Shown: positions 5,080 through 62,680, numbered from the stretch's first letter. The stretch is 64,000 nucleotides of DNA from Chloroflexota bacterium (GCA_965214295.1 OZ243944.1:4158426-4222425); one strand, 5' to 3'. A program made the numbers and translations. Notes: generated by a model not told the origin, from the letters alone.

Positions 5080-6165
5080 ATGGTGATCGAAACAGCGCCG
5101 GCCGAGCCGTGGATTAGCCCCAGCGCACCGCAGGAGTTGCGTGCTCAAATGCGGCGTCCGATGCCGCTGGAAGGCCCCTTGGAGGATGCGTTCGGACGCC
5201 GTATCCGTAATTTGCGGGTCTCGCTCATTGATCGCTGTAACTTCCGCTGTACGTACTGCATGCCGGCCGAGGGCTTGGAGTGGCTGCCGCGCGACGAAAT
5301 CCTGACCTTTGACGAAATCGAACGGCTGGTGCGCTTGGCCGTAGCCCTGGGGATCGAGGAGATCCGCCTCACGGGCGGCGAGCCAACCTTGCGGCCTAAG
5401 CTACCGGAGCTGATCGCGCGCCTCGCGGCCGTCCCCGGGCTGAAGAGCCTGGCGCTGACCACTAATGGCTTCTTGCTGCGTAAGCTGGTCCCGGACCTGG
5501 CCGCAGCCGGTCTCACGCGCATCAACGTCAGTCTGGACACACTAGACGCGCACAAGTTCGCGGCGATCACGCGGCGGAACGCCATCAAGGCGGTGCTCGA
5601 CGGGCTGGCGGCCCTGGAGGAAGTGCCGAGCATCCACCCCATCAAGGTCAACGCCGTAGCCGTGCGCGGCTTCACGGCTGCCGATGACATTCTCGCTTTT
5701 GCCGAGCTGGCCCGGCGCAAGCCCTACGTCATCCGCTTTATCGAGTTCATGCCGCTCGACGCTGATGGCCATTGGGATCGGTTGCAGGTCCTGAGTGGTG
5801 AGGAAATCAAGCGCATTATCGAGCAAGTCTATCCGCTCGTGCCGGCGCGGGTTGCTGCGAGTAGCACGGCCCGCGTGTACCGCTTTGCCGATGGTCGCGG
5901 CGAGATGGGCTTTATCAATCCGGTGAGCCAGCCGTTTTGCGCCTCCTGCGACCGCATTCGCCTCACTGCCGACGGACAGCTCCGAACCTGCCTGTTCTCC
6001 ATTGACGAGACTAATATGCGCGACCCCATGCGGATTGGCGCTCCCGACAGTGAGCTGGAGCTGCTCCTGCGCCACGCCATCTGGCGCAAAGAGCTGAAGC
6101 ACCACATCAATGAAGGCCCGTCCTTCAAGCGCGCCTCGCGCTCGATGTCGCAGATCGGTGGCTAA
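5080..6165 (+). CDS. moaA: GTP 3',8-cyclase MoaA (molybdenum cofactor biosynthesis, radical SAM).
   Basis: CNFRCTYC radical-SAM CxxxCxxC motif and a C-terminal CASCDRIRLTADGQLRTCLF second-cluster motif, with MoaA-typical length and layout. Confidence 0.9.
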   Translation: MVIETAPAEPWISPSAPQELRAQMRRPMPLEGPLEDAFGRRIRNLRVSLIDRCNFRCTYCMPAEGLEWLPRDEILTFDEIERLVRLAVALGIEEIRLTGGEPTLRPKLPELIARLAAVPGLKSLALTTNGFLLRKLVPDLAAAGLTRINVSLDTLDAHKFAAITRRNAIKAVLDGLAALEEVPSIHPIKVNAVAVRGFTAADDILAFAELARRKPYVIRFIEFMPLDADGHWDRLQVLSGEEIKRIIEQVYPLVPARVAASSTARVYRFADGRGEMGFINPVSQPFCASCDRIRLTADGQLRTCLFSIDETNMRDPMRIGAPDSELELLLRHAIWRKELKHHINEGPSFKRASRSMSQIGG

Positions 6166-6353
6166 CGCGAGTTCAGATATCAGCCGTCAGCCAGCGGTGC
6201 GGCTGCCACCCGGAAGCCCGGGGCGCCCCCCAGAACGCGGCGGTGAGCAACGCCGGCCCGGCCCGGGAAATCAATAGGGGCACCACCCTGCCGAACACTG
6301 CCCCCCTACTTGGTCCCTTCTCCGGGACTGAGTCCCCGGCCAAGCGGGGACGG

Positions 6354-6542
6354 CTAGGCGCTGCGCGCTGCGGCGCGATAGACGTAGACCCCTCCAGCCA
6401 AGAGGACTACGCCGGCGACGGTCCCGACGATCTGTTTCCAGCCGAAGCCGGCGACGGAGAAAGGCAGCAAGTCCGCGCTAATCGCGACGATCAGCACGAT
6501 TGCCCCGACCACCATCAACTCGATACCAATGGACTTACGCAC
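6354..6542 (-). CDS. Possible small two-helix membrane protein (62 aa).
   Basis: The ORF encodes two hydrophobic helices (LMVVGAIVLIVAISA, IVGTVAGVVLLAGGVYVY). It lies in an otherwise unexplained 660-bp intergenic gap. There is no homology evidence. Confidence 0.25.
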   Translation of the reverse strand: MRKSIGIELMVVGAIVLIVAISADLLPFSVAGFGWKQIVGTVAGVVLLAGGVYVYRAAARSA

Positions 6543-6829
6543 CGTCTCAACTCCTTCCCCACACCGGGCACACTGCCACCGTCAACCGCTGCGCTCTCCG
6601 CAGGACCAACAGGCGCTTGGCAGCATGACGTACAATTAACAGGTGCTCCGGCGTGCAGGTCTCCATACGGATAGAAGCACCTACCTGCCGGAGGTGAGGA
6701 CCCCGATCCGCTAGTAGGATACTACCTTCCGCGCGACTTTATCTACCCCCGGCAGTCACCGGTCACGGGGGCGAGCAACAGCGGTAGTTTCTCCGGACAA
6801 GGATAGCGACCCGTACCAGGTAGGCTGGC

Positions 6830-7276
6830 ATGAACAAGAAGACGATGCGAGGGCCGGCACGGCCACCGTTTGAGCTTATCGAGCATCCGGCCGACGTGGG
6901 TATCCGGGTCTATGGTCGCGACCTCGCCGAGCTGTTCGCGCATGCGGCCTTGGGTCTCTGCTCGCTCATCACCGATACCGCTACTGTCCTGGAGCGGGAG
7001 ACACGGAGCATCGAGGTCGTAGCACCGGACCGGGAGAGCCTGCTCGTTGGGTGGTTGAGCGAGGTGCTGTGGTTCATCGAGACCGAAGACCTGTTCTTCG
7101 CGCGCTTTACGATTGAGTCCCTCTCCGATACGGCGCTCGCGGCCGTTGCTCATGGCGAGCCGGTGGACCCTCAGCGGCACCCCTATCGAGGCACGATCAA
7201 AGCAGTGACCTACCACCAGCTCGCGCTGCATCGGCAAGCCGGCACGTGGCGCACGAATATCATCTTTGACGTCTGA
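6830..7276 (+). CDS. Archease (RtcB activator).
   Basis: N-terminal FELIEHPADVGIRVYGRDLAELF matches the archease signature (FExxxHTADxxxxxxG). It lies immediately upstream of rtcB. Confidence 0.8.
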   Translation: MNKKTMRGPARPPFELIEHPADVGIRVYGRDLAELFAHAALGLCSLITDTATVLERETRSIEVVAPDRESLLVGWLSEVLWFIETEDLFFARFTIESLSDTALAAVAHGEPVDPQRHPYRGTIKAVTYHQLALHRQAGTWRTNIIFDV

Positions 7277-7382
7277 GGCCAGCGCCAGCGTCGCAGAGTG
7301 AGGAAGGAGTACGACGATGAGCCGACGTCCCTCGCGACGCCGCGGTCGCCGGCGGCAGCGCGGACGCGATCAGCAGCCCACC

Positions 7383-11597: not shown

Positions 11598-11677
11598 CCC
11601 CCTCTTCCCAGTGGGAGAGGGTCGGGGTGAGGGTAGCCGGAGGGGGTGGATGTGTCCATTTCCTGAGGAGAGTACGT

Positions 11678-13111
11678 GTGAGTGTAATCTCACCTGCGCG
11701 TGTAGTCGTGCGGCGCCGCCGCCGCACATCCGTTGCGCGTGAGCCAACCATCACGGCGGCGGCGGTCGCCGCGCTGAATGCGTCGCGGGGCGACCCGGAC
11801 TGGGTACAAGACTTGCGCCGCGCCAGTTTTGCAGCGTGGGAACGCTTACCCATGCCCACCCCAACCACGGAAGGGTGGCGTCGCACCGACCTGCGGCCGA
11901 TCACGTCACGGCTGCACACCGTCAAGCCGGCAGCGCCCCGCAGCGACTTTCACGACGCGGAGCTAGGCGATCTCGACGCCGGCCTGCAAGAGGCGCTCGA
12001 CGTGTACTTCCCGGTAGGAGGACTGGTCATCCAGCAGAACTCCACGACCGTCCAGGAGACTCTGGCCGACGAGCTGGCGCGCCAGGGGGTGCTGTTTATG
12101 GACATCCATGCGGCCGTGCGCGAGCACCCCGATCTGGTGCGGCCCTATCTGATGAACGTCGTGCCGGTGGGCTGGCAGCCGGGCGAGCCGTCCAATGCCG
12201 GGAAGTTCGAGGCGCTACACGGCGCCTTGTGGTCGGGGGGCACGTTTATCTACGTCCCGCCCAACACCGAGGTCGAGTTGCCGCTGCGGATGCTCCAGTG
12301 GACCGGCACGCCGGGCGTGGGCAGCTTTCCGCATACCGTCGTCGTCGTTGATCGCAATAGCAGCGTGACGTGCGTGGAGGAGTTCCACTCCCCAACCTTG
12401 CCGGCCGCGGCCCCGCCCCTCTTTACCAGCGGCGTCACGGAGCTGTACGTGCAGGACAATGCGCGGCTCAACTTCCTATCACTCCACGAACAGGCAACCG
12501 ACGCGCACACTTTCGTCACGCAGCGCTGTCGGCTGGGGCGGGATGCGTATGTCAACTGGGTCGTGGTCGGGATGGGGAGCGCCTATACGCGGGCTACGGC
12601 CGACGTGGTGCTGGCCGGCCGCGGCGCCACGGCCGAGATGCTGGGGTTGGCATTCGGTACGGGCACCCAGGTCTTCGACTTCCACACGCTGCAAGACCAC
12701 GTGGCGCCGCACACCGACAGCGACCAGCTCTATAAGACGGCGATGCAAGACCGGGCGCGGCTGGTCTACGAGGGGTTGGTGGTGATCCAGCCCACCGCCG
12801 GCGAGTCGAACGGCTACCAGGCTAACCGCAACCTGTTACTCAGCAAGACGGCGAAGGCCGACTCGATCCCGATGCTCGAAATCAAGAACAACGAAGTGAA
12901 GTGTACGCACGGCTCGGCTACCGGTCCGGTAGAGCCGGAGCACCTGTACTACCTGCGGACACGCGGTCTGCCGCGCCCGGTGGCCGAGCGCCTGATTATC
13001 CAAGGATTCTTCGAGCCGATTGTCGAGCGCATGGGTGTCGCGGCCCTGCAAGACCAGCTGCGCCAGGCCATAGATCGCAAAATCGGCGGCCTGGACCGCG
13101 ACGCGGGGTAA
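11678..13111 (+). CDS. sufD: Fe-S cluster assembly protein SufD.
   Basis: SufB/SufD-family beta-helix C-terminus (...THGSATGPVEPEHLYYLRTRGLPRPVAERLII). The track ORF (11627) starts inside intergenic repeats. A GTG at 11678 is preceded by GAGGAG. Confidence 0.75.
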   Translation: MSVISPARVVVRRRRRTSVAREPTITAAAVAALNASRGDPDWVQDLRRASFAAWERLPMPTPTTEGWRRTDLRPITSRLHTVKPAAPRSDFHDAELGDLDAGLQEALDVYFPVGGLVIQQNSTTVQETLADELARQGVLFMDIHAAVREHPDLVRPYLMNVVPVGWQPGEPSNAGKFEALHGALWSGGTFIYVPPNTEVELPLRMLQWTGTPGVGSFPHTVVVVDRNSSVTCVEEFHSPTLPAAAPPLFTSGVTELYVQDNARLNFLSLHEQATDAHTFVTQRCRLGRDAYVNWVVVGMGSAYTRATADVVLAGRGATAEMLGLAFGTGTQVFDFHTLQDHVAPHTDSDQLYKTAMQDRARLVYEGLVVIQPTAGESNGYQANRNLLLSKTAKADSIPMLEIKNNEVKCTHGSATGPVEPEHLYYLRTRGLPRPVAERLIIQGFFEPIVERMGVAALQDQLRQAIDRKIGGLDRDAG

Positions 13112-13123
13112 CGGGCGCTCACA

Positions 13124-13240
13124 AGGGTAGGTAAACCGGGAAGACAGGTGGAATGAGCTTGTAGGGGCGTAGCAGGCAACGTCCCTTCCTACCCCTACGA
13201 AGGAGGGGGAGGGCTGGGGTGAGGCCCCACAGGGGGTCTC
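13124..13240. repeat. Partial MITE-like / hairpin-B repeat copy downstream of sufD (ACAAGGGTAGGTAAACC..., GTAGGGG...CCCCTAC, GGAGGGGGAGGGCTGGGGTGAGG).
   Basis: Its left end matches the GGTAGGT TIR family, and a hairpin-B core is present. Confidence 0.45.
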
Positions 13241-38090: not shown

Positions 38091-38308
38091 AGGACGACCG
38101 GGGATGAGGCTCGTCATTCCCGCGCACGCGGGAATCCATGTCCTCCTGCGGATGCGGGGGGACCATAGGGGGCCGGAGGTGCGTAGCTGCCCCTACCTTG
38201 CCCCGCGCTCGTATTGGCTGATACCGTCACCTGGTAGGCGCCAGCGCACCGGCAGGCGGTGTCTTGCCGCGTCCATAGAGCGTTAAGCGCATGGAGGGGG
38301 CTTCAGGA

Positions 38309-39729: not shown

Positions 39730-40200
39730 GCCCCCCCCCGGCCCCCTCGCCTCACCCCCGCCTAGACAAGGGTAGGTTTCTTGTGTAGGGGCGCGATTCA
39801 TCGCGCCCAAGCACTCGTCATTGCGGGGCCAGCCGCCATCCAGGGCCATACGTGGCCCCCCCACCCATCATTGCGGCGGAAGCCGCAATCCACGTCCCCC
39901 TGCGGCGCGGTGAACTGGGGAGCGTGCCCCTGCTCCGGTCTACCGGTGGCCGCTCCCTCTCCCAGGGGGAGAGGGTTCTGACTAGGGTAGGTATGGGACC
40001 AGGGCAATGCTCGCCACGCTTGTCACCAGGTAGGGGCGCGATTGATCGCGCCCTGGGCGTCATGAATGACGCCCCTACCAGCCTGTTTTCCGTTTTACCT
40101 ATTTACCTACCCCTGTGAGGGGAGAGGGTTGGGGTGAGGGCAGCCGGGGGGTGAGGCCCGGATGCCCCACCCTGCTACCATGCACTTGAGCCACGGATAC
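39730..40200. repeat. 470-bp intergenic repeat island (gnd to ABC exporter). It holds two tandem copies of a composite MITE-like element: a GGTAGGT-containing TIR-like end, a GGGGCGCGATTCATCGCGCCC hairpin, hairpin-A copies at 39816-39845 and 39866-39895, and hairpin-B copies (CCCTCTCCC-AGGG-GGAGAGGGTT...GGGGTGAGGG).
   Basis: Direct reading of the sequence. The element ends (ACAAGGGTAGGTTTCTTGTGTAGGGG at about 39762; CTGACTAGGGTAGGTATGGG at about 39981; TTTACCTACCCCTGTGAGGGG at about 40095) match the TIRs of the element at 61436-61652. Confidence 0.6.
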
Positions 40201-49273: not shown

Positions 49274-49376
49274 CCGCTGAAGGCTACACCGCTCGCCTCG
49301 ACGTAATCCCTCCGGCTGGCCCCGACGTGGTATGGTGAATCTACCGGTACGTTGCCTCGCCTCGGAGGACTGCACC

Positions 49377-49985
49377 ATGGTTGCAACCCATGCCGCACCG
49401 CCAGCGCCCGCAGCACAGGCTCCGCTCACCCCGGACGACCTGCTCGCACTCGAAGCCGAGCACGACGCCCGCTACGAGCTGGTCAACGGCGAATTGAAGG
49501 ACCGGGACATGACTAGCCCAGAACATGGAGTCATCGCGCTTAACTTCGGGAGTGAGCTCCGCGCTTTTGTACGTAACAGGAACCTGGGCGTAGTAATGAC
49601 GGGGGCGCGCTTTCTACTCAGAGATGAGCCGTCACTACTGCGAATTCCCGATGCTGCCTTTATATCGAGAGCAAATCTACCCACCGGTAGGCTGAGAGGT
49701 GGCCACTTTCGCGGTGCCCCCGATCTGGCCGTCGAGGTCGTGTCGCCCACCGACAAGGCCGGCGAGTTGGCGGTGAAGATCGCCGACTACCTCATGGCCG
49801 GCACGCAGCAAGTGTGGATTGTGGAGCCGACTACGCGCACCGTGACCGTCTACCGACCGGGCGGCGCGGCCCGCGTCTACGGTGCCGACGATACGCTCGA
49901 CGGCGGCGACCTCCTGCCCGGCCTCGCGCTCCCCGTCGGGGACCTGTTCGACTATGGCGTAGTGGCTGCGTCCCGGGCAGAGTAG
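49377..49985 (+). CDS. Uma2-family (DUF820) endonuclease-like protein, tandem copy 1.
   Basis: YELVNGEL, PDAAFI..., PDLAVEVVSPTDK, KIADYLMAGTQQVWIVEP are the canonical Uma2 PD-(D/E)xK blocks. RBS GGAGGA 8 nt upstream of the ATG. Confidence 0.75.
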   Translation: MVATHAAPPAPAAQAPLTPDDLLALEAEHDARYELVNGELKDRDMTSPEHGVIALNFGSELRAFVRNRNLGVVMTGARFLLRDEPSLLRIPDAAFISRANLPTGRLRGGHFRGAPDLAVEVVSPTDKAGELAVKIADYLMAGTQQVWIVEPTTRTVTVYRPGGAARVYGADDTLDGGDLLPGLALPVGDLFDYGVVAASRAE

Positions 49986-50014
49986 TAGCGAATCCGCAGC
50001 AGGAGGACTGCACC

Positions 50015-50641
50015 ATGGCTGTGACTCTCGCCGCGCCGCCACTGCCCGCAGCACAGGCTCCGCTCACCCCGGACGACCTGCTCGCACTCGAAGCCGAGCA
50101 CGACGCCCGCTACGAGCTGGTCAACGGCAAATTGCAGGATCGGAGTGAGCTGCAGGAGGAAGGAATGCCGAATGCAGAGCATGGAGCGACAAGCGCCCGA
50201 ATCGTCAGTGAGTTGGATACACACGTGCGCGCCGGCAGGTTGGGCATAGTGCTGGTCGAGTGCGGCTTTGTCCTATCGGACGACCCGCCTACAGTGCGTA
50301 TTCCCGACGTCTCACTCATGGCTACGGAACATGTACCTGCGGACGGTCTTCCCAGAGGCTACTTCCCAGGGGCCCCCGATCTGGCCGTCGAGGTCGTGTC
50401 ACCCACCGACAAGGCCGGTGCGCTGATGCTCAAGATCGCCGACTACCTCACGGCCGGCACGCAGCAGATATGGATTGTGGAGCCGACTACGCGCACCGTG
50501 ACCGTCTACCGACCGGGCGGCGCGGCCCGCGTCTACGGTGCCGACGATATGCTCGACGGCGGCGACCTCCTGCCCGGCCTCGCCCTCCCCGTCGGCGCGC
50601 TCTTCGAGTATGGCGTGACGGCTACGTCCCGGGCAGAATAG
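50015..50641 (+). CDS. Uma2-family (DUF820) endonuclease-like protein, tandem copy 2.
   Basis: It has the same blocks (YELVNGKL, PDLAVEVVSPTDK, KIADYLTAGTQQIWIVEP). The 5' 90 nt and 3' 210 nt are near-identical to copy 1, and the middle is divergent. Confidence 0.75.
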   Translation: MAVTLAAPPLPAAQAPLTPDDLLALEAEHDARYELVNGKLQDRSELQEEGMPNAEHGATSARIVSELDTHVRAGRLGIVLVECGFVLSDDPPTVRIPDVSLMATEHVPADGLPRGYFPGAPDLAVEVVSPTDKAGALMLKIADYLTAGTQQIWIVEPTTRTVTVYRPGGAARVYGADDMLDGGDLLPGLALPVGALFEYGVTATSRAE

Positions 50642-58779: not shown

Positions 58780-60135
58780 GTGATGGCCAGCTCCAGTAAC
58801 GGTACGGCGCACATACGGTCAGCTTCGGCGGTGGCTCCGGGGAGCCGCCGTGCGGTGCTGCAACGGGCCGCGGCGACCCTAGCCACCTCCCTCTTGCTTG
58901 CGGCGTGTGATCTGGGCGAGGACCTCACGGACGTACCGATGACCGCCGAAGACCCGGCGGAAGTGATTTACACGACGTGGGGGACACCGGAGCGAGTGCA
59001 GCAGGAAGACTGGACCCTCCTCAGCTTCCAACGGAACTATCCAGCTATCACGGTCAACGTCATCGCTGCGCCTACTGCTGCCGAGCACGTTGCGAGCCTG
59101 TACAGCTTGTTTGCGAGTGGCAGCCTGCCGGACCTGGTCCACCTGCCCTCTTGGTCGGCGCCGACGTTTTATGCGGAAGATGCCGTCCTGCCGCTCGGCG
59201 ACTATATGCGGCGCGACGGGTTTCGCCCTGACGACCTCACGGCGCCGTTCGATGTCTGCACCTACCAGCGCGAGTGGGTTGCCTTGCCGCGAGGCAACAA
59301 CGGCCTCTACGTCGTGTTCTACAACCGTAGCCACTTTAGCGCCGCCGCCGTATCCTCGCCGCCCCTGAGCTGGACCTGGCAAGACTTCCTCACTGCGGCG
59401 CAACAGCTGACCATGGCGGCGAACGGTGTTGCGCCAGCACGTTGGGGCACCACCTTGCACGGCATTGACGAGGCGTATCACGCCTGGCTGTGGGGCAATG
59501 GCGGAGACGAGCTGCTGAACCGAAACGGCGCACCGGCGATCCACGAGCCGCTGGCTATCGGAGCGTTGCAGTGGCTAGCCGACCTACACTTGCAGCACGG
59601 TGTCGCGCCAGCGCCCAACATCTTTGCCGGCAACGGGTTTGCCGCCTTCGCGCGTGGTGACGTGGCGATGTGGTATGCGCCAGCGGAGGCCGAGCTGGCC
59701 CTGGCGCAGCAGGAAGTATCGTTCGACTGGAGTATGGCCCCCCAACCACGGGGCAATCTGGGGGTTCAAGGACACTATCGGCCGGACGTTGCTGCCATCC
59801 TCAAGGGCAGTCGTCAGCCCGAAGAGGCCTGGGAGCTATTACAGTTCTTGGTTGCCCCCGACGTGCAGCAAGCGGAATGGGAAAATCGGCTGTGGCACCC
59901 GCAAGCGCCGTCCTTGCTTGCCGAAGAGACCTACCTCCAACCCCCGGAGCCGCCCTACGACCGGCGGCCGGCCGTGCCCGGTGCGCTCGTCCGTCCTCGC
60001 ACGCCTTATCTGATCTCGCGGATTGACGAGGTCCGGGCGGTAGCGCGGGCGGAGTTCCGCAAGCTCTGGTTCGGCACCAGCACCGCCGAAGAGATCACGG
60101 CAGTCATCGCCGCCAAGATCACCGACGTGCAGTAA
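58780..60135 (+). CDS. ABC transporter sugar-type substrate-binding lipoprotein (family 1 solute-binding protein). Orphan.
   Basis: Tat-like SRRAVLQRAAATLATSLLLAACD signal with lipobox. SBP_bac_1-like composition with many Trp/aromatic residues. No permease or ATPase genes adjacent. Confidence 0.75.
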   Translation: MMASSSNGTAHIRSASAVAPGSRRAVLQRAAATLATSLLLAACDLGEDLTDVPMTAEDPAEVIYTTWGTPERVQQEDWTLLSFQRNYPAITVNVIAAPTAAEHVASLYSLFASGSLPDLVHLPSWSAPTFYAEDAVLPLGDYMRRDGFRPDDLTAPFDVCTYQREWVALPRGNNGLYVVFYNRSHFSAAAVSSPPLSWTWQDFLTAAQQLTMAANGVAPARWGTTLHGIDEAYHAWLWGNGGDELLNRNGAPAIHEPLAIGALQWLADLHLQHGVAPAPNIFAGNGFAAFARGDVAMWYAPAEAELALAQQEVSFDWSMAPQPRGNLGVQGHYRPDVAAILKGSRQPEEAWELLQFLVAPDVQQAEWENRLWHPQAPSLLAEETYLQPPEPPYDRRPAVPGALVRPRTPYLISRIDEVRAVARAEFRKLWFGTSTAEEITAVIAAKITDVQ

Positions 60136-60235
60136 TCAGCGGCCGGTAGCCAGTAGGCAGTGGCGCCGAACATCATTCCCGGTCCTCGTCCGTCATTCCC
60201 GCGCAGGCAGGAATCCAGTAGAATCATATCCGGCC
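60090..60235. repeat. Direct-repeat copy 1 (3' end of the SBP gene plus about 95 bp downstream, including a hairpin-A copy at 60191-60219).
   Basis: Near-identical to 60857-61020: ...GAGATC(A/G)CGGCAG(T/C)CATCGCCGCCAAGATCACCGACGT(G/T)CA(G/A)TA(A/G)TCAG(C/T)GGCCG(G/A)TAGCCAGT...CGTCATTCCCGCGCAGGC(A/G)GGAATC(C/T)AGTAGAATCATATCCG. Confidence 0.7.
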
Positions 60236-60278: not shown

Positions 60279-60506
60279 ATGGCAGCCGTGAAGGCACCGA
60301 AGCCGGAAGAATCCGATATGCTCTACGAGCAGTACGGCAAGCCCTTGGAGGCGCAACATCGCGGAGAGTATCTTGCCGTCTCCCCCCAAGGCGATACGCT
60401 CATTGGCCCTGACTTGGATCAGCTTATAGATGAAGCGATAGAGAAGCTAGGATCGGGCAACTTCATTTTCCAGATAGGAGATGTTTCCGTAGGAAAATGG
60501 CTGTAA
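60279..60506 (+). CDS. Small acidic protein (75 aa) of unknown function. It resembles the small DUF proteins that accompany retropepsin-like protease genes.
   Basis: Strong SD (GAGGAGGTGA, 6-nt spacer) before the ATG. The 3' end overlaps the next ORF by 10 nt. Sequence MLYEQYGKPLEAQHRGEYLAVSPQGDTLIGPDLDQLIDEAIEKLGSGNFIFQIG. Confidence 0.55.
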   Translation: MAAVKAPKPEESDMLYEQYGKPLEAQHRGEYLAVSPQGDTLIGPDLDQLIDEAIEKLGSGNFIFQIGDVSVGKWL

Positions 60507-60856
60507 ATCGGCGGGTCATTAGCACGCATTTCCCCTATATCCCGCTGCTGCTTGAACTAGGTCACCACGTAGTCAGGCTTGAAGCTCTCGTTGATACTGG
60601 GTTTGACGGAGCTATCGTTGTGCCGCCGGACCTGGTGGCCGACGTAGAGCTACCATTGACGTACCTCCGCTGGACACTCGCCGATGGCTCACAGGTGACT
60701 GCGCCAGCCTACCGGGGCACGCTGCAAATTGGCGACATGACACCATTCCGCGTGACGGTCACGGTGCTTGGCGACGAGACCATTATCGGTCGTGCGGCCA
60801 CCAACCGCTTCAAGGTTACTTTTGACCACGGCCGGCAAGTGATCGTCGAGCCCTAG
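60497..60856 (+). CDS. Retropepsin-like (clan AA) aspartic protease domain protein.
   Basis: 119 aa with LEALVDTGFDGAIVVP (the DTG catalytic motif in its hydrophobic context) and a C-terminal IIGRAATNRFKVTFD typical of bacterial/archaeal retropepsin-like proteins. Confidence 0.7.
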   Translation: MAVNRRVISTHFPYIPLLLELGHHVVRLEALVDTGFDGAIVVPPDLVADVELPLTYLRWTLADGSQVTAPAYRGTLQIGDMTPFRVTVTVLGDETIIGRAATNRFKVTFDHGRQVIVEP

Positions 60857-61020
60857 CATCCCTGCATCGCCGAGGAGATCGCGGCAGCCATCGCCGCCAA
60901 GATCACCGACGTTCAATAGTCAGTGGCCGATAGCCAGTGTTCAGTGGCCCCGAACGTCATTCCCGGCCCTCGTCCGTCATTCCCGCGCAGGCGGGAATCT
61001 AGTAGAATCATATCCGATGT
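60857..61020. repeat. Direct-repeat copy 2 (a pseudo-3'-end of the SBP gene encoding ...EEIAAAIAAKITDVQ*, plus a hairpin-A copy at 60975-60999).
   Basis: It begins immediately after the protease gene stop. See copy 1. Confidence 0.7.
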
Positions 61021-61073
61021 ATGCCGCATACCACGAGTTACCACCGCGAGAACGGAGCCGGGAGAGGCGAAGA

Positions 61074-61327
61074 TGATGGCAACCCGAACGGTCAAGCGGT
61101 ACGAGCACAAGGATGGGCAACAGGTATTGCCCGTTACTCCCCAATGCGCCCGACTGCATCGTGAAGCTGTGCCAGCGCCGGACGACGTGCCTACCAGTCG
61201 GCGGCGGCGCGAGGAGCTTCTGGCCTTTGCCGGCATCTGGAGCGACTTGGATGGTGACCGCATGATCGAGGAACTGTACGCCGCGCGCCACGAGTCGCCA
61301 CCGAGTCCACCCGTATCCCCAGCCTGA
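61074..61327 (+). CDS. Small hypothetical protein (84 aa) with an antitoxin-like C-terminal motif. Orphan.
   Basis: RBS GGGAGAGG 5 nt before ATGATG. The C-terminal ...LLAFAGIWSDLDGDRMIEELYAARHES resembles the G-[IL]-W-x-D...EE[IL]Y..R tail seen on many type II antitoxins. No toxin partner is adjacent. Confidence 0.4.
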
Positions 61328-61435
61328 ACCGCTACCAGCAAGGCTAATTGGTAGTTATCCCCGCCCGGCTCATGCTCTTTGACGCTGTAGGTACGCCGGC
61401 CAAGCCCTCTAGGAGCGCGATGCGGGGGTGGGTGG

Positions 61436-61652
61436 CTGACAGGGGTAGGTTTTTTGTCAGGGCGTGATTCATTGCGCCTCGCCCCTCGTCATTCCCAGTA
61501 TCTCATCCGTCATTCCGGCGCAAGCCGGAATCCAGGGCCATTCGGAGGGCCTGTTCCAGTCCCTACTCCCCCTCTCCACATGGTGGAGAGGGGGCCGGGG
61601 GTGAGGTCTGCCCCACCCCCGCGGCTCTCTACGAAAAACCTACCCTTGTCAG
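61436..61652. mobile_element. MITE-like composite element of about 217 bp with 20-bp terminal inverted repeats (CTGACAGGGGTAGGTTTTTT ... AAAAACCTACCCTTGTCAG). It is flanked by a 12-bp direct repeat GGGGGTGGGTGG (61424-61435 and 61652-61663).
   Basis: TIRs and flanking direct repeat read directly from the sequence. Internally it carries a GGCGTGATTCATTGCGCC hairpin, a hairpin-A copy (61508-61536), and a hairpin-B copy (CCCCCTCTCCACATGGTGGAGAGGGGGCCGGGGGTGAGG). The right TIR supplies the stop codon of the ABC ATPase gene. Confidence 0.6.
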
Positions 61653-62680
61653 GGGGTGGGTGGTGAGAGGGCGGCTGGCGGGATGGCTTGGCCGGTGCTA
61701 TACAGGTCGCGGATGATGGCCTCGATCTCCGGCTCCTCAATCGTCAGGTCCCGCAGCTCGTAGCGCGTGGCGAGCGCGGCGATCAGGGCTGCGGCGGTGG
61801 TCTCCTGCCGACGAAATCGCAGCCATTGCCGCGGGCCGTCCACGCGCACAACCGTCGCGTGCGGCACCTGCACGGGGCCGCCGGCACTCACGAAATCCAC
61901 GACGAGCGTCCGTTCCTGCCCGTACCGCTCCCGGATCGTCTCCAATGCCCCGTCGTACAGCAGTCGTCCGCGGTCAATAATCAGCAGGCGCTCGCAAAGC
62001 TGGCTGATGTCGGCCATATCGTGGGTCGTGAGCAGCACCGTGACGGCGCGCTCGCGGTTGAGCCGCCGGAGAAACTCGCGAATACGGTGCTTGGCTACCA
62101 CGTCGAGGCCGATGGTCGGCTCATCAAGGTAGAGAATCTCGGGGTCGTGCAGCAAGGCCGCCGTCAGATCGCCACGCATCCGCTGACCCAGCGAAAGCTG
62201 ACGTACCGGCGTGTCCAGGAACGGCCCCAGCTCCAGCAACTCCGTGCAAAATTCCAGGTTGGCCCGGTGCCGCGCGGCTGGCACACGGTAGATGAAGCGC
62301 AGCAGCTCCAGCGACTCGATGAGCGGCAGGTCCCACCACAATTGCGTGCGTTGCCCGAACACCACGCCGATCCGCCGGGCGAGTGCTTTCCGGCGCTGGT
62401 GGGGCACTAGCCCGGCCACCTCGATTCGGCCGCTACTTGGCACGAGGATGCCGGTGAGCATCTTGATCGTGGTGGATTTACCGGCCCCGTTCGGCCCGAT
62501 GCAGCCCACCATCTCGCCCCGCTCGATGCGGAAGGTGATCCTGTCCACCGCGGGGACGATGCGGCCGCGTCGCTCGACCAGGTTACGCAGTGCCCCAAGC
62601 GCGCCACGGTGATGGTGCGCCACACGAAAGGTCTTGCGTAAGTCCTCGACTTCAATGAGCGCGGTCATCTGACGGGCCAA
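61649..62680 (-). CDS. ABC transporter ATP-binding protein (ABC-2 / DrrA-like) with a C-terminal extension.
   Basis: Walker A GPNGAGKST, signature LSLGQRMR, Walker B ILYLDEPTIGLD, and H-loop THDM. The last codons (PPTP-stop) are encoded by the MITE flank/TIR. Confidence 0.8.
   Translation of the reverse strand: MARQMTALIEVEDLRKTFRVAHHHRGALGALRNLVERRGRIVPAVDRITFRIERGEMVGCIGPNGAGKSTTIKMLTGILVPSSGRIEVAGLVPHQRRKALARRIGVVFGQRTQLWWDLPLIESLELLRFIYRVPAARHRANLEFCTELLELGPFLDTPVRQLSLGQRMRGDLTAALLHDPEILYLDEPTIGLDVVAKHRIREFLRRLNRERAVTVLLTTHDMADISQLCERLLIIDRGRLLYDGALETIRERYGQERTLVVDFVSAGGPVQVPHATVVRVDGPRQWLRFRRQETTAAALIAALATRYELRDLTIEEPEIEAIIRDLYSTGQAIPPAALSPPTP

Follow-up and report, generated by a model that had tools for sequence, protein, structure and literature searches.

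A miniature inverted-repeat transposable element, very probably derived from an IS4-family insertion sequence, at the 3' end of an ABC ATPase gene in a Chloroflexota bacterium

At positions 61436-61652 of a 64,000-nucleotide stretch of DNA from a Chloroflexota bacterium (GCA_965214295.1, OZ243944.1:4158426-4222425; the whole stretch is called the window below), a 217-bp non-coding element lies at the 3' end of a gene for an ABC-2-type transporter ATP-binding protein, referred to here as the ABC (ATP-binding cassette) ATPase. The element, which was read directly from 61200-61900, is bounded by terminal inverted repeats (TIRs) and flanked by a short direct repeat. It is very probably a miniature inverted-repeat transposable element (MITE), namely a non-coding derivative of an insertion sequence (IS) of the IS4 family, which inserted in the terminal codons of the ABC ATPase. 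The gene, the ends of the element and its flanks are given below; numbers starting with L denote sampled pieces of metagenome-assembled genomes (MAGs) and fetched contigs.

61649-62680, minus strand: gene of the ABC-2-type transporter ATP-binding protein, 343 aa (PF00005, thousands of homologues)
61649-61651, minus strand: TGA stop codon of this gene, within the right end of the element and derived from its terminal CTGACA
61436-61457, plus strand: left TIR CTGACAGGGGTAGGTTTTTTGT, which resembles the left end of the IS (...TTTTTTG)
61631-61652, minus strand: right TIR ACGAAAAACCTACCCTTGTCAG, reading inward CTGACAAGGGTAGGTTTTTCGT, which resembles the right end of the IS (...TTTTTC)
61425-61435, no strand: the 11-bp target-site duplication GGGGTGGGTGG on the left (12 bp when G61424 is counted), which occurs just once at the empty sites of L060, L088 and L097
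61653-61663, no strand: the 11-bp target-site duplication GGGGTGGGTGG on the right, whose minus strand codes for (P)PTP, the last residues of the truncated protein

The original prediction, made from the sequence alone, described a MITE-like element with inverted ends and a flanking repeat at this site, and the TIRs are borne out as two 22-nt arms, 173 nt apart, which are complementary at 20 of 22 positions (91%). With up to three mismatches, the TIR 20-mer is found at only two places in the 64-kb window, which are the two ends of the element, while shuffled sequences give an expectation of 0.00. The 12-mer GGGGGTGGGTGG is repeated exactly at 61424-61435 and 61652-61663. By itself, this flank is marginal in the G-rich window (three matches with at most one mismatch, a number also attained in 2 of 100 shuffles, versus 0.61 expected); it is significant because it abuts both ends of the element exactly and because empty sites exist. 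RNA folding of the element is strong (-113.8 kcal/mol, z = -7.2), as it must be for any element composed of TIRs and hairpins. A promoter and terminator scan of 61000-62000 yielded no site, and no terminator is therefore claimed for the element. An Rfam scan of 61200-61900 gave no match, with a best score of 21.9 bits compared to a gathering score of 60. Furthermore, tblastn with the partner transposases described below revealed no trace of transposase sequence in the element or elsewhere in the window.

The ABC ATPase ends in ...AALSPPTP*, of which PPTP is contributed by the right flank repeat. Orthologous loci are present in three related Chloroflexota MAGs (L060, L080 and L088) with a nucleotide identity of 85-91%, and a fourth relative, contig L097, encodes P0001, the closest protein, which is 94% identical to the ABC ATPase of the window. 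All four lack a 228-bp block consisting of the element and one copy of the repeat, and the empty site of L097 reads ...GAGCGCGCTTC-GGGGGTGGATGG-TGCGG..., with the target occurring only once. Excision of 61436-61663 in silico restores a protein that ends in ...PPTPASRS*, compared to ...PSTPEARS for P0001 and ...PPTPETRS* for the L060 orthologue. Based on the empty sites of the relatives and the C-terminus restored by excision, the insertion took away four codons (ASRS) and gave the gene a new stop, which agrees with the earlier claim that it had remodelled the C-terminus of the ABC ATPase and provided PPTP and the TGA. Most homologues of the ABC ATPase stop around 15 residues earlier, at ...RRIYEEGL; the affected C-terminal tail is thus not conserved, and the effect of the insertion on the ABC ATPase is probably neutral. 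Judged from the sequences compared, the insertion is later than the split from L097, the closest sampled relative. The claim of recent activity in this genome holds in so far as the insertion post-dates this split and the duplication is perfect, but a resident transposase with these ends was not seen in the window or in the parts of the MITE-bearing genomes that were sampled.

The gene content beside the ABC ATPase gene varies among the relatives: a 75-aa gene abuts it in L097 and L080, and the window instead contains open reading frames (ORFs) of 119 aa and 134 aa at this place (60279-61327). These differing neighbours point to a local rearrangement or insertion.

To delimit the family, the strict 20-nt end pattern GACARGGGTAGGTTTYTYGT was scanned against a genome collection that does not include the source genome. 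It matched 94 stretches, 86 of which are located in seven related Chloroflexota MAGs (33 in OY759972.1, 22 in OZ241866.1 and the others in OZ242293.1, OZ250185.1, JAJDUF01, DAOUJP01 and JAJDZR01); the remaining eight comprise one match in the MAG CAVXXD01 and seven scattered matches without the preceding CT, which is by estimate about the number due to chance. In the sampled loci and the window, 241 ends with at most two mismatches to a 15-nt core were counted, which form 69 paired elements of 102-361 bp (median 220). Flanking direct repeats of 11 bp with at most one mismatch are present in 32 of the 69 paired elements, 17 of them exact, versus 2.3 expected from permuted partners, and their register is fixed, since shifts of -3 to +3 score 0 with the exception of +1, which scores 4. 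Because so many elements share exactly one register, the target-site duplication is 11 bp long and not 12 bp: the exact 12-bp repeat reported for the locus in the window is real, but the duplication that recurs throughout the family comprises 11 bp, and the apparent twelfth base is a G that also serves as the final base of the inverted repeat. A longer inverted repeat that would include the flanking GGGACCATAGG was considered and rejected, as a sequence on one side whose reverse complement is seen from the other end is a direct repeat.

The ends follow an approximately 20-bp consensus, CTGACA(A/G)GGGTAGGTTTTT, whose positions 1-19 are conserved at 0.83 or more over 138 ends, except for positions 3 and 7. 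In most MITEs, an ...TTTTTTGT end on one side is combined with a ...TTTTTCG end on the other, which mirrors the left and right ends of the IS. The interior of the window's MITE, which consists of a GTAG-type hairpin, a CGTC-type hairpin, the CCCCCTCTCCAC/GTGGAGAGGGGG hairpin and a GGGGGTGAGG/CCCCACCCCC hairpin, is found in identical order at unrelated loci in other genomes, over the whole element in L005, L020 and L023 and with 94.7% identity over 152 bp in L028. Since the same module order recurs between the same ends at unrelated loci, the composite was transposed as a unit and existed before its arrival at the ABC ATPase gene. Other subfamilies carry unrelated interiors between the same ends. 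With its size of 217 bp, no transposase gene, TIRs, a target-site duplication of fixed length and multiple dispersed copies, the element has every feature by which a MITE is recognized at the sequence level, and the TIRs, the duplication, the related copies and the empty sites together uphold the predicted structure of a non-autonomous DNA transposon. A literature search for MITEs in Chloroflexi retrieved neither a description of this family nor any MITE family described for the phylum, and the family seems not to have been described before. The element is of an ordinary kind and changes no concept; nevertheless, an occupied site, four empty sites, a restored reading frame, a quantified duplication and a parental IS lineage make it a MITE insertion of textbook quality, and the 22-nt end can be used to mask and annotate hundreds of repeats in these Chloroflexota MAGs.

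The interior of the MITE is composed of the following hairpins, some of which resemble repetitive extragenic palindromic (REP) sequences.

61456-61479, plus strand: GTAG-tagged REP-like hairpin, a degenerate copy GTCAGGGCGTGATTCATTGCGCCT of the family consensus GTAGGGGCGCGATTCATCGCGCCC (family D10); the same module is found at the same place in L005, L020, L023, L051 and L078
About 61486-61500, plus strand: partial duplicate of the CGTC hairpin (CTCGTCATTCC...), next to the copy at 61508-61533
61508-61533, plus strand: CGTC-tagged REP-like hairpin CGTCATTCCGGCGCAAGCCGGAATCC (families D2 and D5)
61568-61594, plus strand: perfect 12-bp-stem hairpin CCCCCTCTCCAC-ATG-GTGGAGAGGGGG, conserved in L005, L023 and L028
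61595-61621, plus strand: imperfect G-rich hairpin CCGGGGGTGAGG-TCTG-CCCCACCCCCG, from the inverted-repeat search and the family comparison

REPs tagged with GTAG or CGTC, REPs that serve as IS targets and REP ends that supply stop codons have been described (PMC3733652). The tagged short stem-loops GTAGGGGCGCGATTCATCGCGCCC and CGTCATTCCGGCGCAAGCCGGAATCC each occur in several copies in the window, and the MITE modules resemble the tagged REPs in that a stem-loop comes after an initial GTAG or CGTC; the MITE of the window has GTCA in this place, a decayed form of the GTAG tag. In contrast to the stop codons supplied by REPs (PMC3733652), the stop codon of the ABC ATPase gene comes from the end of the MITE and not from a REP. 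The interior hairpins are members of recurrent families of the window (D2, D5 and D10), and most copies of the hairpin families D2 (10 copies), D5, D6 and D10 lie outside MITEs. It was correctly noted that the interior is built from recurrent hairpins, but these families are mostly standalone, independent REP-like repeats, which are also carried by this MITE subfamily, rather than modules of one MITE family.

REP-like hairpins with GTAG and CGTC tags (CGTCATTCCCGCGCAAGCGGGAATCC and relatives) are found at high density throughout the window and are mostly intergenic; their sites include 11570, 19042, 26003, 38111, 45859, 60190, 60974 and 62802. A CGTC-type REP is also held by a 156-nt direct repeat (88%) at 60077-60232 and 60861-61016. 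Two mechanically called ORFs of 70 aa (61454-61666, plus strand) and 76 aa (61510-61740, minus strand) run through the MITE and are composed of repeat sequence; gene finders are likely to call them as spurious 'hypothetical proteins'. The MITE thus explains spurious ORFs such as the one at 61454-61666 as well as the difference in the gene end between close relatives.

A candidate for the autonomous partner, for which the original prediction had suggested searching, exists in the form of an IS with matching ends and a DDE transposase in other metagenomic organisms. In L006, MITE-type ends bound a 1282-bp element whose transposase frame contains two frameshifts. A Pfam hmmscan of the frameshifted L006 ORFs gave no hit; the repaired transposase led to the intact homologues P0121-P0127 (333-370 aa, 68-78% identity), which carry PF01609. 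Copies of the IS of 1240-1275 bp are present in L095, L096 and L100, and L098 and L099 show one end each of further copies. The left end of the IS starts with CTGACAAGGGTAGGTTTTTTG... and the right end, read inward, with CTGACAAGGGTAGGTTTTTCA...; in L006, L095, L096 and L100, CTGACAAGGGTAGGTTTTT is present at both ends, and these 19-20-bp ends are the same as those of the MITE. The similarity between MITE and IS is limited to the TIR of around 20 bp, and GTGCCACGTGACAAA constitutes the subterminal motif of the IS. Its transposase is encoded by a single ORF, which is intact for P0123 (353 aa) and P0121 (363 aa), with the D, D and E residues located in the motifs LAMDAT, ADRGL and WIE. The hallmarks of the IS4 family are the signature Y-(2)-R-(3)-E-(6)-K and a duplication of around 10 bp (De Palmenaer, Siguier and Mahillon 2008, PMC2266710). 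The signature is YRLRAWIESGFKDLK in P0123 and is found in 116 of 120 homologues, and the duplication of 11 bp, which falls in the range of 7-13 bp, was obtained for the MITEs as well as for a related IS in L108 (335-1642). This 1308-bp IS encodes the transposase P0133 (56% identical), has the related ends CTTTCAGGGGTAGGTTT and is flanked by a perfect 11-bp duplication, CCCAGCCCCCC. In addition, P0123 matches the NCBIfam model NF033591 'IS4 family transposase' with an E-value of 6.6e-28 (1e-23 to 1e-28 for the transposases overall). Leaving aside the cut-off of this equivalog hidden Markov model, the partner is to be placed in the IS4 family by its defining sequence features.

The closest annotated relatives of the transposase are unnamed 'transposases' of cyanobacterial plasmids with around 48% identity. 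When the PDB was searched by sequence, the transposase had no match, and a direct sequence link to the Tn5 structure is therefore not drawn. A metagenome scan with P0123 retrieved one short contig only, from which the host of the IS was not placed. Sibling contigs of L108 have mismatched flanks, which probably arose from assembly at repeats. Two other candidates were discarded. L015 (852-2471) was considered as a full-length IS, but it encloses a gene for a Gfo/Idh/MocA-type oxidoreductase instead of a transposase; here, two inverted MITE-type ends, with the same GTAG hairpin after each of them, are separated by 1.6 kb and lack a flanking duplication, which could be two half-elements or a captured gene. 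The transposases next to MITEs in L022 and L091 belong to a different IS with different ends and are 32% identical to P0123. This second IS4-like IS of the MITE-bearing genomes (L022 551-1759; also L091, around 6100-7300) has the ends GCTTAATACACGACACTTTT and an 11-bp duplication, CGTCCCGACGG, and is located inside the REP-like hairpin CCCCCGTCCCGACGGGGGAGGG.

Three other explanations of the locus were weighed against a transposed IS4-family MITE. The composite interior could suggest that the whole is a cluster of REP hairpins resembling a bacterial interspersed mosaic element (BIME), which was spread by a REP-associated tyrosine transposase (RAYT) and whose outer inverted repeat is just another palindromic module; indeed, the interior consists of stem-loops with GTAG and CGTC tags like those in PMC3733652, and such hairpins are very abundant as standalone copies in the window and the clade. 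However, REP/RAYT mobility does not create 11-bp duplications, which almost half of the paired elements possess in a fixed register, IS copies with a DDE/YREK transposase have ends identical to these outer 20 bp, and the empty sites lack the entire 217-bp unit rather than single hairpins, which makes this explanation very unlikely. Only slightly better placed, though still very improbable, is a history in which the site first received a full-length IS, whose interior was subsequently lost in place and substituted by REP hairpins, so that the 217-bp unit itself never transposed. The match of the ends to the full-length IS fits this history, as does the known insertion of REPs into other repeats (PMC3733652), but the same module order and ends recur at the unrelated loci L005, L020, L023 and L028, and the element retains no transposase sequence. 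Chance repeats in a repeat-rich, G+C-rich intergenic region, next to a gene whose C-terminus has merely diverged, can practically be dismissed: the 12-mer flank taken by itself stands out only weakly in the window, but the 20-mer of the ends has an expectation of 0 and more than 200 related ends exist in the clade, and the precise presence or absence of the element, with a target that is single-copy in the relatives, already refutes this view.

Several observations weigh against the derivation of the MITE from an IS4-family IS as well. Around half of the paired MITEs have no recognizable duplication, and L006, L095, L096 and L100, which carry the complete IS copies with identical ends, show no flanking duplication of these copies, which may be due to chimeric metagenome assembly at repeats. 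The NCBIfam IS4 scores of 51-98 bits stay below the curated cut-off of 152; since the model is an 'equivalog' for one IS4 lineage, this speaks against membership in that lineage and not in the family. Neither the window nor the 8-kb pieces sampled from the MITE-bearing MAGs yielded a transposase with these ends in the tblastn search, and the contigs carrying the IS are devoid of the REP repeats of the MITE clade. IS copies with matching ends were seen only in other metagenomic organisms, with the MITE-bearing genomes sampled in part. The MITEs may persist in the Chloroflexota clade without a resident autonomous copy and may be mobilised across genomes or by a diverged transposase.

As to the target of the transposed MITE, 14 of the 32 duplications are GGGACCATAGG or differ from it by at most one mismatch, and the G-rich strand of the duplications has a G content of 55% and a C content of 15%, where GGG occupies positions 1-3 and GG positions 10-11; the duplication in the window, GGGGTGGGTGG, fits this pattern. 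GGGACCATAGG is found directly 3' of the very abundant CGTC-tagged hairpin CGTCCCCCCGCCGCAGCGGGGGGAC. GGGACCATAGGG was counted 118 times in the sampled loci, and among the 70 copies listed, most follow the CGTCCCCCC...GGGGGGAC hairpin, while some represent MITE insertion flanks. Target-type hairpins are also present in the window at 38159 and 45906. REPs have been recognized as IS targets before (Tobes and Pareja 2006, as cited in PMC3733652), and the preferred target of the present family, located directly next to a REP-like hairpin, resembles these cases; in contrast to them, the IS4-family MITE or IS inserts beside the hairpin and not in it.

The following course of events is proposed for the MITE at the ABC ATPase gene. 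A transposase of the P0123 type or a close relative would bind both ends of the MITE and excise it by cut-and-paste, and integration would proceed through cuts staggered by 11 bp, with a preference for G-run targets and above all for GGGACCATAGG located 3' of a CGTC-tagged REP hairpin. At the present locus, as the sequences show, the MITE inserted in the last ABC ATPase codons and duplicated 11 bp of the G-rich target GGGGTGGGTGG, thereby cutting off ASRS, with its terminal CTGACA supplying the TGA. The strongly folding MITE would now form the 3' end of the transcript region between the convergent genes. Mobilisation in trans, the cut-and-paste chemistry and a regulatory or other effect on the ABC gene are proposed by analogy with IS10, IS50 and IS231, for which the cut-and-paste route is established (PMC2266710).

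Seven subgroups of the IS4 family are listed in Table 1 of PMC2266710, according to which IS10 creates a 9-bp duplication and the ends of IS4 and IS231 start with -AAT or CAT. The partner IS shares with the family the single-ORF DDE transposase (PF01609), the YREK signature and a duplication whose 11 bp correspond to around one helical turn. Like the IS10 and IS50 subgroups, it has ends that begin with CT, and its length of 1240-1282 bp lies within the IS10 range. When compared by the features of this table, however, its combination of CT ends, around 1.25 kb and 11 bp is not that of any of the seven subgroups: the partner is IS10-like in its size and CT ends, whereas its 11-bp duplication is IS4- or IS231-like. 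It is possible, but tentative, that the partner represents a new IS4-family lineage that chooses its targets by sequence or structure, namely an 11-bp G-rich site 3' of a CGTC-tagged REP hairpin, and that its MITEs carry REPs as cargo, so that DDE MITEs and REP hairpins spread in physical coupling. The G-rich, REP-adjacent targeting together with the 11-bp duplication and CT ends adds a data point to the diversity of the IS4 family.

The closest known analogues are the MIC231 cassettes, which are cited in PMC2266710, and the classical bacterial MITEs. Like the cassettes, the window's MITE is a non-autonomous IS4-family derivative that keeps only the ends of the IS around an unrelated passenger; in contrast to the present elements of 100-360 bp, which are non-coding, have REP-like passengers and occur in Chloroflexota, MIC231 is larger, carries genes and belongs to Bacillota. 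MIC231 of Bacillus cereus is derived from IS231, of which it has retained only the ends around unrelated passenger DNA; it is mobilised in trans and creates duplications of 10-12 bp. The classical bacterial MITEs comprise Correia/NEMIS, RUP, ERIC and Nezha (listed in PMC3733652). Like the present family, these are short (70-300 bp), with TIRs (15-30 bp), non-coding, multi-copy, often located near or overlapping gene ends and strongly folding; the present family differs in its ends, its parent IS family, the 11-bp duplication and the G-rich target beside REPs. Sequence similarity to the classical MITE families was neither found nor expected, and Rfam gave no match.

In addition to the element at the ABC ATPase gene, the window contains the following members and remnants of the family.

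39978-40119, no strand: complete short element of 142 bp with the variant ends CTGACTAGGGTAGGT and CTCACAGGGGTAGGT, flanked by the 11-bp duplication GGGAGAGGGTT at 39967-39977 and 40120-40130
39763-39977, plus strand: decayed copy that has only the left end (TAGACAAGGGTAGGTTTCTTGT, followed by a GTAG-REP and CGTC-REPs) and no right inverted repeat
13118-13132, plus strand: single family end CTCACAAGGGTAGGTaaacc, 7 bp past the stop of the ORF 11627-13111

Two elements in tandem had been predicted at 39762-40105, of which one is complete, at 39978-40119, but the other keeps its left end only. The complete element sits in a GGGAGAGGGTTGGGGTGAGGG-type repeat, and the decayed copy begins with TAGACAAGGG... 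and is around 80-87% identical to family members over its first 80-137 bp. Similarly, the partial element proposed at 13124-13240 does contain a family end, starting at 13118, but this is a single end only.

Furthermore, two tandem paralogous ORFs of around 215 aa are located at 49332-49985 and around 50000-50641, with around 90% DNA identity over 285 nt, and explain the repeat families D1 and D7. Judged by eye, their products resemble endonucleases of the Uma2/DUF820 type.

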